Below are positions 7,152-12,162 of a stretch of DNA of 64,000 nucleotides, piece after piece. Made by a program: the position numbers and the translations under genes. The notes under the pieces were generated by a model. That model was given only the letters and a program-made list of their open reading frames with translations. It was not told the DNA's origin and did no database searches. Each line of letters starts with the position of its first letter. Within the stretch, counting starts at the first letter, position 1. This stretch comes from a virus, in the IMG/VR virus record IMGVR_UViG_3300034121_001395. One strand, 5' to 3'.

Positions 7152-8072
7152 ATGTCATTTGACAAACTAAAACAAAATCGGGCAGCAAGCATCAATAAAC
7201 TTGTTGAAGCTGCAGAAAAATTGAGTACACCAAAAGCTTCATACGGCGATGATCGTATTTGGAGCCCAGTAGTTGATAAAGCTGGAAACGGTTATGCCGT
7301 GATTCGCTTTTTGCCAGCACTTGAAGGTGAAGATCTGCCATGGGTTCGCTTTTGGGATCATGGTTTTAAGGGACCAACTGGTCGTTGGTATATTGAAAAT
7401 TCTCTTACCAGTATTGGTCAACCTGACCCGGTAAGCGAGATCAATAGCGTGCTCTGGAATAGCGGTAATGAAAAAGATAAAGAGATTGCTCGCGAGCGCA
7501 AGCGTCGTTTGCATTATGTCTCTAACATTCTTGTGCTTAGTGACCCTGCAAATCCAGACAATGAAGGTAAAGTTTTCTTGTACAAATATGGCAAGAAAAT
7601 CTTTGACAAAATTATGGATATTATGCAACCACAGTTTCAAGATGAGACACCAATCAACCCGTTTGATTTTTGGGCAGGTGCAAACTTCAAGTTGAAGATT
7701 CGCAACTTTGAAGGCTATCGTAACTATGATAAGTCTGAATTTGAAGGAGCTTCTGAACTCTTCAGTGGAGATGAAGCCAAACTTGAGAAGACTTACAACT
7801 CGTTGTATTCATTGAAGGACTTTATTGATCCTGCAAATTATAAGTCATATGCAGACCTTAAGCGTAAACTTGTTGAGGTACTTGGAGCAGAGGCACTTGC
7901 TGGTTCTTCTACTGAACCAGAAAGTGTGAATGTCGCTGCTGCAGCAGTTGGAAAAACAGTTGAACAGACACCAAGTTATAAGAGTACTGAATCGACATTT
8001 GCTGCATCAAGCACAGATGACGATGACGATGAGTCGCTTAGCTACTTTGCAAAGCTTGCTCAAGGCGGCTAA
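7152..8072 (+). CDS. gp32: single-stranded DNA-binding protein gp32
   Basis: DKAGNGYAVIRFLP, WYIENSLT, YKYGKKIFDKI, PFDFW.GANFKLK, NYDKSEF and an acidic tail. Confidence 0.97.
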   Translation: MSFDKLKQNRAASINKLVEAAEKLSTPKASYGDDRIWSPVVDKAGNGYAVIRFLPALEGEDLPWVRFWDHGFKGPTGRWYIENSLTSIGQPDPVSEINSVLWNSGNEKDKEIARERKRRLHYVSNILVLSDPANPDNEGKVFLYKYGKKIFDKIMDIMQPQFQDETPINPFDFWAGANFKLKIRNFEGYRNYDKSEFEGASELFSGDEAKLEKTYNSLYSLKDFIDPANYKSYADLKRKLVEVLGAEALAGSSTEPESVNVAAAAVGKTVEQTPSYKSTESTFAASSTDDDDDESLSYFAKLAQGG

Positions 8073-8139: not shown

Positions 8140-8415
8140 ATGATCTTTCTAATAAAAGTATTTACATACTTAAATTGTACTGATTGTTTACGTCATCTAA
8201 AGACATTACGTGACTATTGTGAACGCACTCCTACAAGTTTACAAATAATTGATATTGACAAGGAAGAAAATATACCACTTATATTTGAACATAAAATAGA
8301 TGGCATACCACACACAATATGCTATAATATACGTGGTGAAATTATGCATAGTTTTCCAGGAATAAAAACTCCTGAAGAGTTTGACGATATTGTATATTAT
8401 CGAACTGCAGATTAA
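8140..8415 (+). CDS. thioredoxin/glutaredoxin-like protein
   Basis: CTDC (CxxC), IDIDK and cis-Pro motif GIP; TATACT lies 6 nt upstream of the ATG. Confidence 0.75.
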   Translation: MIFLIKVFTYLNCTDCLRHLKTLRDYCERTPTSLQIIDIDKEENIPLIFEHKIDGIPHTICYNIRGEIMHSFPGIKTPEEFDDIVYYRTAD

Positions 8416-10145
8416 TAACCCATCGCACTGCCAGTTAATATTGGCATCATTGGCGTGGCATTATTATTTACATTACTCGTACTAATATTATTAGTGTTTC
8501 CGCCATTATTGTTATTAACAACTATTGTTGGTGCTATATTTGCAAAGTTACCTGCAGTCGCTAGTGTATTACCAGTTGTTAATGGTGTTGCTTTGATGTT
8601 TGCTTTCCACTTAAAGTCTGAAGCAGCATACTCATCCCATGAACCATAACCGGCAGCCATCGCCTTTTCAGTTTTAGACAGTTCAGTAAAATTATTTGTA
8701 GATGTAGCCTTTAATATTTTCTCAGATGACGATAATGTAGCAGTTGCTAATTTTTCAGATGATGATGATGACTCTTTTTCTTTTGGAGAACTACTGTATG
8801 CATACTCGTAAATTTTTGGTGGTATTGCCTTGCGTACCCAATACTTCGGATTTGCCTTTGATAGATCTTCTTTCGGATCTGGCAATATTGCTCGTATACT
8901 TGATTTGTAAAGTTCATTTATTGCATTTCCCATGTCACCTGCTATATCTCCTATTGCGCCACCAGCAGAAGAGAATAAATTTTCAACATCAGCAAAAATA
9001 GTTCTAAATAAATTTGGAAATACTTCTGTAAAAAGATTTTTGATCACATCAAAAATAAACACACCAATTTTTTTAATGATACCTGGTCCTTCGGTAATCA
9101 AATATTCTATAATTTTATAACCAAGTTTACTAATAAATACTGGAAGATCAAACAATAAAAATTTAAAACCCTTTATAATAAGAGGAAATATTTCCATTAT
9201 TCCAGTAAGAAGAAGATTTCCTAAAGGTTTGACAATATTTTCCCAACTGTTTGTAAAATATTTTCTCAATTCATCAGTTAATTTATTAGCATCTAATGAA
9301 AGAATAGCATCAAAAATAGTAAATAAACTTCTAAAATTATCTATAACTTGGTCAATGACTTGTTTTACAGTTGGTCCAAGGAGTGTTCCAAGTTTTTCAA
9401 GACCAAAAAGTTTTAAAATCCAACCTCCTATATCAGCAAGTACTTGTATCGTCGAAGCAAAAACACTATTAAAAAGACCAATTAATCCTTCTTTAATTGC
9501 GCCCATAACTCCATCTTCTTTATATCCTTTAATTGCACCCATAATAGCACCAATAAGTCCAGTAACCACAGTTATTGCAAGTCCAATTGGGCCAGCCAAT
9601 TTAGTAAGTTTACCAAAAATAGAAAATATTTTTGGCATTTTACTTAGCATATTCAACAATCCAGCTGGAAGAATTTTTGTACCTAATGTAGCAAATATAT
9701 TACCCAACCCCTTCAATAATCCACCCGCAAATGGTCCTCCCGCTGCAAATAAACCAGCTAATAAACCAGCTAATTTTCCAAATATTCCACCGGGGATTTC
9801 AATCTTAGAATTTTTAGCTGGTGCTGAACGTGTTTTATCTGGTTTTAAACCTCTAAGAGCATCAAGTAATTCGTCACGATTTTCACGTTCTTGAAGTTTA
9901 TTGCCTTCAAGACGTTTTGCCAACACTACATTTGATCGTATTAAAACATCAAATTTATCCTTTAGGTCACCTGCAACATTAACTAACTTGTCTAAAAACG
10001 TAGGAACCTCTGTAGTGTTTTCACGAGCAGCATTCGATGCAAGTGTAAAGTCATAGTTATCGATTGTATCAAGAATAAGATCTTGAGACAAATTAGAACT
10101 TTGTAATTCTTTTACAACCTGGGCTAGTGACGATTCTGCGGTCAT
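8412..10145 (-). CDS. gp29: tape-measure-like baseplate hub protein (gp29-like)
   Basis: 577 aa, helical, Gly/Ala/Leu-rich amphipathic repeats, N-rich C-terminus; located after gp26/gp51; size close to T4 gp29. Confidence 0.7.
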   Translation of the reverse strand: MTAESSLAQVVKELQSSNLSQDLILDTIDNYDFTLASNAARENTTEVPTFLDKLVNVAGDLKDKFDVLIRSNVVLAKRLEGNKLQERENRDELLDALRGLKPDKTRSAPAKNSKIEIPGGIFGKLAGLLAGLFAAGGPFAGGLLKGLGNIFATLGTKILPAGLLNMLSKMPKIFSIFGKLTKLAGPIGLAITVVTGLIGAIMGAIKGYKEDGVMGAIKEGLIGLFNSVFASTIQVLADIGGWILKLFGLEKLGTLLGPTVKQVIDQVIDNFRSLFTIFDAILSLDANKLTDELRKYFTNSWENIVKPLGNLLLTGIMEIFPLIIKGFKFLLFDLPVFISKLGYKIIEYLITEGPGIIKKIGVFIFDVIKNLFTEVFPNLFRTIFADVENLFSSAGGAIGDIAGDMGNAINELYKSSIRAILPDPKEDLSKANPKYWVRKAIPPKIYEYAYSSSPKEKESSSSSEKLATATLSSSEKILKATSTNNFTELSKTEKAMAAGYGSWDEYAASDFKWKANIKATPLTTGNTLATAGNFANIAPTIVVNNNNGGNTNNISTSNVNNNATPMMPILTGSAMGY

Positions 10146-10324
10146 TTTTTACGTTTTTCTTCTTCTTCTCTTATGTGTTTTATTAGCATTGCAATATAAA
10201 TTTCCCTCTCCCATGGTATCATCGTGTCTAATTCAGTTAAACTATATTTGTGATGTTGCATGAGTGCAAAGTTTGTTTGATAGTAATTAGTCAACGATTC
10301 ATGCGAGAGGGCTATTCGAAAAAA
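10142..10324 (-). CDS. gp51: gp51-like baseplate hub assembly protein; probably expressed as a -1 frameshift extension of gp26 (first ATG at 10261)
   Basis: Frame reads FFRIALSHESLTNYYQTNFALMQHHKYSLTELDTMIPWEREIYIAMLIKHIREEEEKRKK*; its TGA overlaps the tape-measure ATG. Confidence 0.8.
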   Translation of the reverse strand, partial: FFRIALSHESLTNYYQTNFALMQHHKYSLTELDTMIPWEREIYIAMLIKHIREEEEKRKK

Positions 10325-11022
10325 GCTTGTGTGCCTACAAGTGTAATATCATTGTCAGTCTTACAACCAGTACAATTAAATTTTACACTATGTTGTAGTT
10401 TAGGAGAGTTTGATATATACTCTTCAATTTTATTAAGTTGAGCTCGGCTTAAGCTGTTAACAAATGTTAGCAACTCTTCGCGAGACGACTGTGCTGAGGG
10501 ATACACTCCACTGTCATCAAAGATTGAATCAATTGAAGCAATAAGCATATTTGTTATTGTGTCCATATCAACTTCAGATGTGCTTATAATCGTTGACATA
10601 TCATTTACACGTATATGTCTTAAAACCACACCAATTTTATCAGTTAACATAATTTTGTTGCTAATTTCTTTAACTGGCCACGTTACTTCAATATCATCAA
10701 TATTAACAGACACCTCGTTGTAAGTTTCACAATGATCGCACTTACATTTGATATTGCTAACTTCACCTACGCTCTTTGCTCGTAACTTTAAGAAAATATA
10801 CTCTAAGTCAAACGAAGTCAAATCGTTTGGGTCAACGACACCGAATGTACAGGCTCGTATAATGTTTTTAATCGCGGACATCATTTCTGATGAGCTGTTT
10901 GACTCCTGTGCGAGCAGCAATATTTTTTCTTCCTTTACAAGAAAAGGACGATATTCAATTGACTGTGATGTAGATGGTACAGTCAATACATATTTTGGGG
11001 ATTCTAGGATTGGTAATGGCAT
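10312..11022 (-). CDS. gp26: baseplate hub assembly chaperone gp26
   Basis: YRPFLVKEEKILL, FDLEYIFLKLRAKSVGE, two CxxC pairs; ends in QAFFE. Confidence 0.92.
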   Translation of the reverse strand: MPLPILESPKYVLTVPSTSQSIEYRPFLVKEEKILLLAQESNSSSEMMSAIKNIIRACTFGVVDPNDLTSFDLEYIFLKLRAKSVGEVSNIKCKCDHCETYNEVSVNIDDIEVTWPVKEISNKIMLTDKIGVVLRHIRVNDMSTIISTSEVDMDTITNMLIASIDSIFDDSGVYPSAQSSREELLTFVNSLSRAQLNKIEEYISNSPKLQHSVKFNCTGCKTDNDITLVGTQAFFE

Positions 11023-11046: not shown

Positions 11047-11574
11047 TTATTTCTTAATATCTAATTTATCATATGTAAATACTACAGATATTTTTTGTAT
11101 TGTTGATTCAGCATTATTATCTAGTTCAATAGAATTCAAAGTTATTGGATATGCGTTTTGCAATTTAACGTTTTGAATTTCTTCGTCATTTTCGTTTAGC
11201 TGCGTAATAGTAATATCAGCCTTGTAAGTTTGGTGATCTTTAGCGAGTAGATAGGAATCAATGTTTATTATTTTTTTCATCCATTCATCTATCGCCTTTT
11301 TAATGGCGTTATTATTAGTTGAAATAAATGTCATTGTTACATCATCTTCAATATAACCGGTTGGTATTTTTAATGGACGACGAGTGCCTATATCATAGTC
11401 TAATGTTGTAATTTGTTTTCCAGGTATATTAACAGACTCACATAAAAATGAAATATCCCTTGATACAGATGATGAACCAGGTAAACTAGCAAATGTTACT
11501 GAAAATCTATTTGGACGCGCTAAGCCCCCATTTCGCATTATTGCGGATTTAAAATCATTTATTGAAGATGACAT
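11047..11574 (-). CDS. gp54: tail tube initiator, gp54/gp19-family protein
   Basis: GLARPNRF, LCESVNIPG, NAYPI and VFTY tail-tube fold motifs. Confidence 0.75.
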   Translation of the reverse strand: MSSSINDFKSAIMRNGGLARPNRFSVTFASLPGSSSVSRDISFLCESVNIPGKQITTLDYDIGTRRPLKIPTGYIEDDVTMTFISTNNNAIKKAIDEWMKKIINIDSYLLAKDHQTYKADITITQLNENDEEIQNVKLQNAYPITLNSIELDNNAESTIQKISVVFTYDKLDIKK

Positions 11575-11577
11575 AGT

Positions 11578-12162
11578 TTAGATTAGTGTACGTGTTTTTT
11601 GCCAGATTGAGGCATTCTTTTGGCCAACGAAAGAATCAGTTGGTAGAAAAAGTGCAGTTTCCCATTCCTTTGGAAGCACCTCAACAGTTTTAGAAGTGAC
11701 GTGTGCATACAAATAGTGTTTAAAACATGGAGCGTATGCACGCAATTTTGATGTGCCATTTAGTAAATCATATGATAGTTTAAACCGTGTAGTTTCATCT
11801 AATTTATTGTTGTTCATATAATCCATCAGGCGATCAAAAAATATTGCGCGTTGACGAGGCGGAAGATAGTGTAGATTCAATCCATAGAATCCTTTTTTTG
11901 CTGGGCCTACCATGAGTATAAGTGGAAATCTATCATAATACGGCAGCGTCTCTTTGTATTTTGGATCATATAAAAACATAAACATACGACCAATAAGAGG
12001 TCTGTTTCTTACTGTCAATGAGTCGTCGTTTAATACTTTTGATGGAGATACATTTGTAAGTGTACGTATTTTACGATAAAACCATTCTCTGGATTCTTTT
12101 GTACGAGGTAAGAATCCAGTTTTTTCTGCATCAGACTGAATTTTAGAAAAAAGAGATGGCAT
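11578..12162 (-). CDS. gp2: DNA end protector protein gp2
   Basis: MFLYDPKYKETLPYYDRFPL, GLNLHYLPP, CFKHYL. Confidence 0.93.
   Translation of the reverse strand: MPSLFSKIQSDAEKTGFLPRTKESREWFYRKIRTLTNVSPSKVLNDDSLTVRNRPLIGRMFMFLYDPKYKETLPYYDRFPLILMVGPAKKGFYGLNLHYLPPRQRAIFFDRLMDYMNNNKLDETTRFKLSYDLLNGTSKLRAYAPCFKHYLYAHVTSKTVEVLPKEWETALFLPTDSFVGQKNASIWQKTRTLI

Follow-up and report, generated by a model that had tools for sequence, protein, structure and literature searches.

The gp26-like gene of a T4-like phage from lake water raises the question of whether a single gene is decoded in two ways, giving a short protein and, after a -1 slip, a longer protein that ends in the domain known from databases as gp51. 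The gene was found in IMG/VR virus record IMGVR_UViG_3300034121_001395, of which a stretch of 64,000 nt, here called the window, was analyzed. A preliminary description of the locus had proposed a programmed -1 frameshift between gp26 and gp51 and had compared the pair to the lambda tail assembly chaperones gpG and gpGT. The features of interest, with the evidence for each, are as follows.

11047-11574, minus strand: gp19-like gene for the tail tube protein, immediately preceding the chaperone gene (PF06841, E 9.8e-9; phrog_45 tail tube, E 1.4e-43)
10312-11022, minus strand: gp26-like gene, putative short chaperone form (TAC-N, 236 aa), zero frame, ending ...AFFE* (PF12322, phrog_150, T4 gp26, AF2 model)
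10318-10324, minus strand: slippery heptamer T TTT TTC in X XXY YYZ register, proposed -1 slip site (same register in relatives)
10312-10314, minus strand: zero-frame stop TAG, one codon past the heptamer (sequence and open reading frame list)
10142-10318, minus strand: -1 frame extension, gp51-like C-terminal domain of the putative long form (TAC-NC, 293 aa in total) (phrog_634, phrog_150 and T4 gp51 matches)
10142-10294, minus strand: gp51-like open reading frame as conventionally callable, from TTG 10294, with the first ATG at 10261 (open reading frame list)
8412-10145, minus strand: gene for a probable tape measure protein, gp29 analogue, 577 aa, with an ATGA overlap with the -1 frame stop (weak PHROG matches)

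On the minus strand the gp26-like gene ends with ...CAA GCT TTT TTC GAA TAG. The T-run occupies 10324-10319 and is followed by C at 10318. The heptamer starts, at 10324, on the third position of a gp26 codon, which places the heptamer in the X XXY YYZ register, and its position one codon before the gp26 stop was confirmed in the window sequence. The -1 frame from this site reads FFRIALSHESLTNYYQTNFALMQHHKYSL...KRKK* (starting FFRIALSH...), with 58 residues after the two phenylalanines and before the stop. Upstream of the heptamer the frame is open for just 8 codons; TTG first occurs in it at codon 11 and ATG at codon 22. The stop of the frame, TGA (10144-10142), overlaps the ATG (10145-10143) of the 577-aa reading frame. 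Both the gp51-like sequence ending in KRKK and this overlap with the presumed tape measure start had been described before and were found as stated. The slip-site signal in gp26 is far above chance. Contigs from three other lake-water metagenome runs were identical to the window over 10100-10500, with no indel in the T-run; one of the three was near-identical throughout and possibly derives from the same source sample as the window. An assembly error at the T-run is therefore unlikely. Two RNA runs were also searched; 9% of the sampled words matched, and one of the runs, as a contig, spans 10100-10159, which is off the slip site.

Conservation of the site was analyzed in 77 distinct related loci, in which gp26 was 34-99% identical. 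All 77 had T TTT TTN in the identical register together with a gp51-like domain in the -1 frame. The heptamer was TTTTTTC in 50 loci, TTTTTTT in 26 and TTTTTTA in one, and T-runs of length 6, 7 and 8 were counted in 51, 24 and 2 loci, respectively. The zero-frame stop was located 0-1 codon past the heptamer in 68 of the 77 relatives. The codon preceding the two phenylalanines was AGT, TCT, AAT, GAT or GCT, coding for four different amino acids (S, N, D, A) and always ending in T. The first base of the heptamer was accordingly T in 76 out of 76 sequences, at a position that is synonymous in gp26, with an entropy of zero compared to about 1.7-1.85 bits at neighbouring third positions. This invariant base means that the heptamer is conserved beyond what the amino acid sequence requires. 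The slip site was also observed in a KVP40-like vibriophage, Sinorhizobium phiM19, Pelagibacter HTVC008M and S-CRM01. The preliminary description had suggested an alignment to check the T-run, the -1 relation to gp51 and the conservation of the gp51 frame upstream of its Met; all three are kept in every one of the 77 loci, as well as in four further phage groups.

Stimulators are common at -1 frameshift sites, either as a hairpin or pseudoknot on the downstream side or as a Shine-Dalgarno-like element on the upstream side, and are not obligatory. RNAalifold on 43 sequences gave 0 pairs and no conserved downstream structure, and the fold of the window itself near the site had a z of 0.36, in agreement with the earlier remark that no strong downstream hairpin is evident. 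Two helices picked by eye, GAGGGN (-14) with GCCCUC (+12) and GCCUCU (+13) with AGAGGC (+32), performed no better than shuffled or slid controls. The Rfam search resulted in a chance snoRNA-like match only (E 0.35). Slippage in this clade appears to need no RNA structure. A Shine-Dalgarno-like GAGG at -15 to -12 (10-12 nt upstream) was present in 45 of the 77 relatives. Among the relatives, Glu at -14 is preferentially encoded by GAG, which creates the GAGG (24:11, compared to 11:27 for Glu-Gly at other places in gp26; p 0.001). The motif may raise slip efficiency in the relatives that have it. It is absent from the window, which has GTAGGC at this place, so slip efficiency in the window may be low.

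The gp26-like protein matched PF12322 T4_baseplate (E 1.9e-56), phrog_150 (E 2e-60) and T4 gp26 (E 8e-10). The extension matched phrog_634, baseplate hub assembly catalyst (E 4.6e-24), the C-terminal part of phrog_150 (E 4e-5) and residues 200-244 of T4 gp51 (E 8e-7), and PF28602 is listed on it in the protein database. The zero-frame protein is thus a member of the T4 gp26 family and the extension corresponds to the C-terminus of gp51. BFVD structure matches included gp51 of Acinetobacter phage ZZ1 (E 9e-6). By sequence no curated chaperone family was hit; Pfam gave only PF12322 T4_baseplate and NCBIfam none. Foldseek against PDB returned no match, and a profile search against PDB sequences gave nothing below E 0.14 and thus no solved relative by sequence. 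An AF2 model of the window gp26 was obtained with a pLDDT of 95. When residues 1-90 of this model were compared with 48,161 chains, the best three were 3fgx (Z 7.5), 2ob9 (Z 7.3) and YqbN 3klu (Z 6.9), and the fourth-ranked chain fell to Z 5.1. The alignment with 2ob9, the HK97 tail assembly chaperone, covered 84 of 104 residues with an rmsd of 3.7. A second model, again for residues 1-90, had the same three chains on top, with 2ob9 at Z 7.7; Z values of about 7-8 are in the middling range by the structure tool's own note. The models support a predicted HK97 tail assembly chaperone fold for the N-terminal domain of the gp26-like protein.

The 577-aa reading frame downstream was weakly matched by tape measure families of PHROG (E 5e-5 to 5e-3) and has a length near that of T4 gp29 (590 aa). 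BLAST comparisons with T4 gp29 and with the tape measure protein of HTVC008M were both negative. Position, size and the weak PHROG matches make this a probable tape measure protein. The order of the tube gene (11047-11574), the chaperone gene (10142-11022 with its extension) and the probable tape measure gene (8412-10145) is the lambda-type placement, and a long reading frame within 20 nt downstream was found in 42 of 76 relatives. No tRNA genes were found in the window.

The T4 proteins gp26 and gp51 act as chaperones in hub assembly, and the virion contains no gp51 (PMC3004832). They belong to the same protein family as the pair in the window. A hidden Markov model of 76 conceptual fusions aligned T4 gp51 in a single domain that spans the junction (HMM 75-278 to gp51 64-244, E 4e-12), and T4 gp26 ended at the junction in the same alignment. 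Moreover, the N-terminus of T4 gp51 resembles gp26 (E 0.003). Because gp51 aligns unbroken across the junction of the conceptual fusion, T4 makes the long form from a separate gene. T4 gene 26 reads GAG TTC TTT GAG at the corresponding place and has lost the T-run. The long form of the window is therefore colinear with T4 gp51; in T4 it is a separate, divergently transcribed gene, whereas in the window one gene and a -1 slip would be needed. The proposal that gp26 and gp51 are a G/GT-like chaperone system is supported by the gene position, the HK97 chaperone fold and this colinearity.

Nearly all database records inspected annotate gp26 and gp51 as two independent genes, as had been pointed out, and this is the layout expected if gp51 were a separate protein of about 40-50 aa, translated from TTG 10294, from ATG 10261 or by termination-reinitiation, with no fusion made. 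In vibriophage D490 and S-CRM01 an ATG is located right at the junction, and coupled reinitiation is plausible there. The preliminary description had noted that the first ATG is not preceded by a Shine-Dalgarno sequence. This is true, but it is no argument against a gp51 start, since only 4 of the 43 long reading frames of the window have a Shine-Dalgarno-like motif. The pattern of conservation is a stronger guide. The match to the gp51 domain begins at the first transframe residue in related loci. The first ATG, said earlier to lie 21 codons downstream within the conserved region, is codon 22, and residues 3-20 of the -1 frame are conserved before this usual first Met (L6 91%, H8 87%, L11 99%, N18 97%, F19 100%). 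The entropies of these residues at the three -1-frame codon positions were 0.95, 0.66 and 1.41, which is a coding periodicity. Start codons, on the other hand, are not conserved: Met22 was kept in only 76%, the closest relatives read ...FALIQHH, and no ATG, GTG or TTG was found before residue 20 in 41 of the 77 loci. The -1 frame is thus open and conserved from the slip site and not from a start codon. Independent translation also leaves unexplained the invariant first base of the heptamer, the fixed -1 offset and the gp26-like N-terminal part of T4 gp51, colinear with the fusion, and it was considered improbable.

Slightly less probable still is transcriptional slippage, in which RNA polymerase would add one U in the T-run and a fraction of the mRNAs would encode the fusion in frame. 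The site does contain a homopolymer run, and polymerase and ribosome slippage would yield one and the same protein, so that sequence alone does not tell them apart. Efficient transcriptional slippage in bacteria is known for runs of about 9, however, and those observed in the related loci are shorter. The codon-selected GAGG of the relatives would act on ribosomes and not on RNA polymerase, and the 'other mechanism' mentioned in PMC10885494 is described in that passage as two separate genes. An artefact or decayed gene, with a homopolymer indel error splitting what is really a single gene, could be suspected from the in-frame fused reading frames of about 295-300 aa present in protein databases (P0006, P0009, P0010, P0031 and P0032). 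These fused forms were nearly all singletons, though. A profile of the fused forms was run over 1.84 billion representatives, and almost all of its top 150 matches (about 235 aa) ended at profile position 233-237, which is the junction. All 77 loci, and isolate genomes as well, have the split form, and the T-run was identical in the three other metagenome runs, including the one that may share its source sample with the window. The chance that the split is an artefact is negligible.

The gp26-like gene is, with high probability, a tail assembly chaperone gene that is decoded two ways, into proteins of 236 and 293 aa, by a -1 slip. We infer both the ribosomal slip at the heptamer and its frequency from the sequence. 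Most ribosomes would read GCU UUU UUC GAA and halt at UAG, giving the 236-aa TAC-N. A minority would move back by one base at U UUU UUC, with both tRNA-Phe re-pairing from UUU-UUC to UUU-UUU. The slipped ribosomes would add 58 residues in the -1 frame and give the 293-aa TAC-NC, with the 'gp51' of databases as its C-terminal domain. Binding partners can be suggested by analogy with lambda G/GT. The N-terminal part shared by both forms would hold the tape measure protein encoded just downstream, and the role of the extension would be to bring in tube or hub proteins. Neither chaperone form is expected in the virion, judging from lambda and from T4 genetics (PMC3004832).

The site resembles known systems to different degrees. 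GTTTTT has been proposed as the slip site in chaperone genes of Vandenendeviridae and Andersonviridae (PMC12846349), likewise argued from motif conservation and from a -1 frame that stays open in many genomes. The -1 frameshift of T7 gene 10A/10B also uses a poly-U site and tRNA-Phe, in another gene family and phage group. Unlike in these two comparisons, both of which concern other gene families, the full X XXY YYZ heptamer is invariant in the clade of the window. For lambda, Levin et al. 1993 and Xu, Hendrix and Duda 2004 are said to have described gpG/gpGT and a conserved -1 frameshift in the chaperone genes of long-tailed phages. The window shares with lambda G/GT a chaperone gene between the tube and tape measure genes and the lack of a strong RNA stimulator. 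The slippery heptamer of lambda is G GGA AAG, compared to U UUU UUC in the window. The window protein differs further in being about two times larger, with a chaperone-fold domain, a second domain and a zinc ribbon, and in having no sequence match to Pfam chaperone families. Another difference from lambda is that the protein would act on a contractile tail, with baseplate hub proteins as its partners.

The novelty of gp26 and gp51 as a chaperone pair, implied in the preliminary description, did not hold. According to PMC10885494 and PMC12846349, which cite it, a 2022 study (Vladimirov, Gautam & Davidson, Virology 2022;566:9-15, PMID 34826709) had identified gp26/gp51 of T4-like phages as the tail assembly chaperones TAC-N/TAC-NC, and the passage in PMC12846349 attributes poly-T -1 frameshift signals in TAC-N genes to T4-like phages. 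As far as these citing passages go, the chaperone identity of gp26/gp51 in T4-like phages, together with the frameshift signal, appears to be already known, and the window appears to be a good example and not a new principle. It is rather unlikely that the 2022 paper covers only the two-gene case of T4, with the T-runs merely noted. If it did, the strictly conserved U UUU UUY -1 frameshift would be unreported in detail across Kyanoviridae, pelagimyophages, Emdodecavirus, KVP40-like vibriophages and freshwater relatives. Also unreported would then be slippage without RNA structure, the zero-frame stop 0-1 codon downstream, and a Shine-Dalgarno-like GAGG that is under codon-level selection in part of the clade and was lost in the lineage of the window; more than 500 phage genome records would have a wrong gene model.

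The practical value is in annotation, and the finding confirms and extends published work. The gp51-like domain is carried by 538 phage records, and in all of those inspected it was either a separate tiny gene or omitted; where annotated, it is labelled 'baseplate hub assembly catalyst' as a gene of its own. Cyanophage gp51 lacks the first approximately 200 aa of T4 gp51 and has about one fifth of its length (PMC3037559). With the proposed slip, these missing 200 residues would come from gp26, and T4-type phages with contractile tails would share the short and long chaperone logic of lambda.

The minus strand of the window carries, in this order, a tail tube gene, a gp26-like gene, a gp51-like frame and a 577-aa ORF.

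Features of the window
7152-8072, plus strand: 306-aa ORF with an acidic C-terminal tail, noted by eye
8412-10145, minus strand: 577-aa ORF, candidate tape measure gene (weak PHROG matches to tape measure proteins)
Ending at 10142, minus strand: short gp51-like frame (phrog_634 'baseplate hub assembly catalyst', E 4.6e-24)
10312-11022, minus strand: gp26-like gene (PF12322, E 1.9e-56; phrog_150, E 2e-60)
10324-10318, minus strand: slippery heptamer T TTT TTC, in the X XXY YYZ register
11047-11574, minus strand: gp19-like tail tube gene
11578-12162, minus strand: 194-aa ORF, DNA end protector gp2 (phrog_429, E 2.4e-55)

The gp26-like gene was found to end in GCT TTT TTC GAA TAG, and both the heptamer and the gp51-like sequence in the -1 frame are placed as the preliminary description had them. 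The -1 frame is open from just 8 codons 5' of the heptamer, reads FFRIALSHESLTNYYQTNFALMQHH... and terminates at a TGA sharing bases with the start ATG of the 577-aa ORF, which is tentatively assigned as the tape measure protein. A -1 slip would convert the 236-aa protein (short form) into a 293-aa gp26-gp51 fusion (long form).

The comparison covered 80 loci from IMG/VR and 4 from annotated phages, whose encoded gp26 relatives are 34-99% identical. The gp51-like domain was in the -1 frame in all 80 + 4 loci, and the tblastn match begins at the first transframe residue. Site statistics were taken over 77 distinct loci. Conservation of the T-run and of the -1 relation to gp51, proposed earlier as a check, was observed in 77/77; the heptamer is TTTTTTC in 50, TTTTTTT in 26 and TTTTTTA in 1, in a constant register. 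The codon ahead of it, AGT, TCT, AAT, GAT or GCT, thus specifies any of four amino acids, with a T ending throughout, and this T column has zero entropy, compared to about 1.7-1.85 bits at neighbouring third positions. A zero-frame stop follows 0-1 codon after the heptamer in 68/77 loci. An equivalent site with the -1 relation is present in a KVP40-like vibriophage, Sinorhizobium phage phiM19, Pelagibacter phage HTVC008M and Synechococcus phage S-CRM01. The gp51-like domain was detected by tblastn in 538 phage records; among the matches listed, it is annotated as a separate 'assembly catalyst' gene or not at all.

The split arrangement of gp26 and gp51 is the norm and not an assembly error, because three further lake-water metagenome runs have contigs identical to the window over 10100-10500, with no indel in the T-run, and because the best database homologues mostly end at the junction. 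A search with a profile built on the rare in-frame fused ORFs yielded 7,447 cluster representatives; among the best 150, nearly all were about 235 aa long and ended there. One of the three contigs is near-identical over its full length and is possibly the source of the window DNA. The in-frame gp26-gp51 ORFs in the databases (P0006, P0009, P0010, P0031 and P0032; about 295-300 aa) are either true fusions or homopolymer errors. Two of these come from contigs 307 kb and 215 kb long, and the junction of P0032 deviates (FFSRKYGHEDL), as though the frames had been joined by an indel a few codons further on.

Conservation of the gp51 frame ahead of its first Met had also been suggested as a check. 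Transframe residues 3-20 were found to be conserved (L6 91%, H8 87%, L11 99%, N18 97%, F19 100%), with entropies by -1-frame codon position of 0.95/0.66/1.41, as is typical of coding sequence. Conservation does not extend to the start codons: 76% of loci have Met22, close relatives of the window read ...FALIQHH, and 41/77 loci have no ATG, GTG or TTG ahead of residue 20. The missing Shine-Dalgarno (SD) sequence at the gp51 ATG, used as an argument in the preliminary description, carries no weight, since an SD-like motif lies at most 20 nt upstream of the ATG in just 4/43 ORFs of at least 150 aa in the window (37.7% G+C); the phage evidently initiates mostly without one. In Vibrio phage D490 (the KVP40-like vibriophage) and S-CRM01, coupled reinitiation could give a stand-alone gp51-like extension besides or in place of the fusion, because an ATG lies right at the gp26 stop and slip site.

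Transcriptional slippage at the T-run would give a product identical to that of a -1 ribosomal slip, but is very improbable, the run being short for it (6 bases in 51 loci, 7 in 24 and 8 in 2). An SD-like GAGG, GGAG or AGGA occurs 10-12 nt 5' of the heptamer (-15 to -12) in 45/77 relatives. The Glu codon at this motif favours GAG (24:11, versus 436:1366 for all other gp26 Glu codons and 11:27 at Glu-Gly elsewhere in gp26, p 0.001 for the latter). An SD-like motif upstream of a slip site resembles the dnaX stimulator, and with its GAG preference it points to a ribosomal mechanism. The motif is absent from the window, which has GTAGGC instead, and from its closest relatives, and may be a lineage-specific tuning of slip efficiency. 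No conserved RNA structure was found at the slip site (RNAalifold 0 pairs), the fold of the window itself was unremarkable (z 0.36) and Rfam gave no match for the site, which bears out the earlier remark that no strong downstream stimulatory hairpin is evident. Just 3' of the stop, around +13 to +15 (window 10309-10311; numbering starts at the heptamer), relatives have C at +14, a third position of the -1 frame, in 59/76 loci, and the Leu codon at +15 is CTN in 67/76, though the genomes are AT-rich; the outcome is a conserved GCCCTYTC. Two candidate helices, in which this segment would pair with an upstream GAGGG or a downstream AGAGGC, failed controls and were rejected.

Window gp26 and a natural fused homologue were modelled with AlphaFold (pLDDT 95 and 90.4, respectively), and each model was compared with 48,161 PDB representatives. 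The three best matches in both searches aligned to residues 1-90, with Z values that are middling by the standard of the comparison tool: HK97 tail assembly chaperone 2ob9 (7.7 for the fused homologue, 7.3 for window gp26), 3fgx (7.3 and 7.5) and B. subtilis YqbN, 3klu (6.8 and 6.9). The next matches were at about Z 5. The depositors of one of the three chains call it a tail assembly chaperone, and YqbN presumably belongs to the XkdN-like chaperone family. The remainder of gp26 is modelled as a second domain and a zinc-ribbon-like pair of hairpins, where the cysteines of KCKCDHCE (residues 93-98) and NCTGCK (218-221) lie on two beta-hairpins that meet; weak zinc-ribbon matches were to LysW, ZitP and NrdR (Z about 3-3.5). 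The cysteines are kept in T4 gp26 and lost in many marine homologues, e.g. P0006. Foldseek and sequence searches against the PDB gave no match, and by sequence gp26 is not a member of the curated chaperone families. The BFVD matches were all myovirus 'baseplate hub' proteins, one of them a T4-type gp51. In T4, both gp26 and gp51 act as chaperones of hub assembly (PMC3004832). The proposal that gp26 and gp51 of the window are, by analogy, a chaperone pair of the lambda G/GT type is well supported by the chaperone fold ranking over residues 1-90, the BFVD matches, the order of tube, chaperone and candidate tape measure, and T4 genetics.

T4 carries 26 and 51 as two distinct genes with divergent transcription. 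The window extension matches T4 gp51 residues 200-244 (E 8e-7), and the N-terminus of T4 gp51 is similar to gp26 (E 0.003). With an HMM of 76 conceptual fusions, a single domain of T4 gp51 spanned the junction (gp51 64-244 on HMM 75-278, E 4e-12), and the alignment of T4 gp26 stopped at the junction. T4 gene 26 has GAG TTC TTT GAG in place of the T-run. T4 thus encodes the long form as a gene of its own, whereas the window is predicted to use one gene and a -1 slip. Cyanophage gp51 is only about 20% of the length of T4 gp51 (PMC3037559), which would be explained by T4 gp51 being the whole long form.

The window phage is a recurrent freshwater virus, since 82-100% of the sampled words of 9900-10800 were present in each of 18 metagenome runs on lake water or freshwater, dated 2016-2024. 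The closest IMG/VR contig, L006, encodes a gp26 that is 99% identical. No tRNA genes were found in the window, and by eye the 306-aa ORF resembles single-strand DNA binding proteins of the gp32 type.

A literature search aimed at gp26, gp51 and frameshift found no paper directly. According to PMC10885494, some T4-like phages do without frameshifting and carry a short gene together with a longer, fused one, and PMC12846349 credits poly-T -1 frameshift signals in the TAC-N (short form) genes of T4-like phages to Vladimirov, Gautam & Davidson (Virology 2022). As both cite the 2022 paper, the predicted frameshift site appears to be known already, and the window is a well-supported further example from an uncultured freshwater phage.
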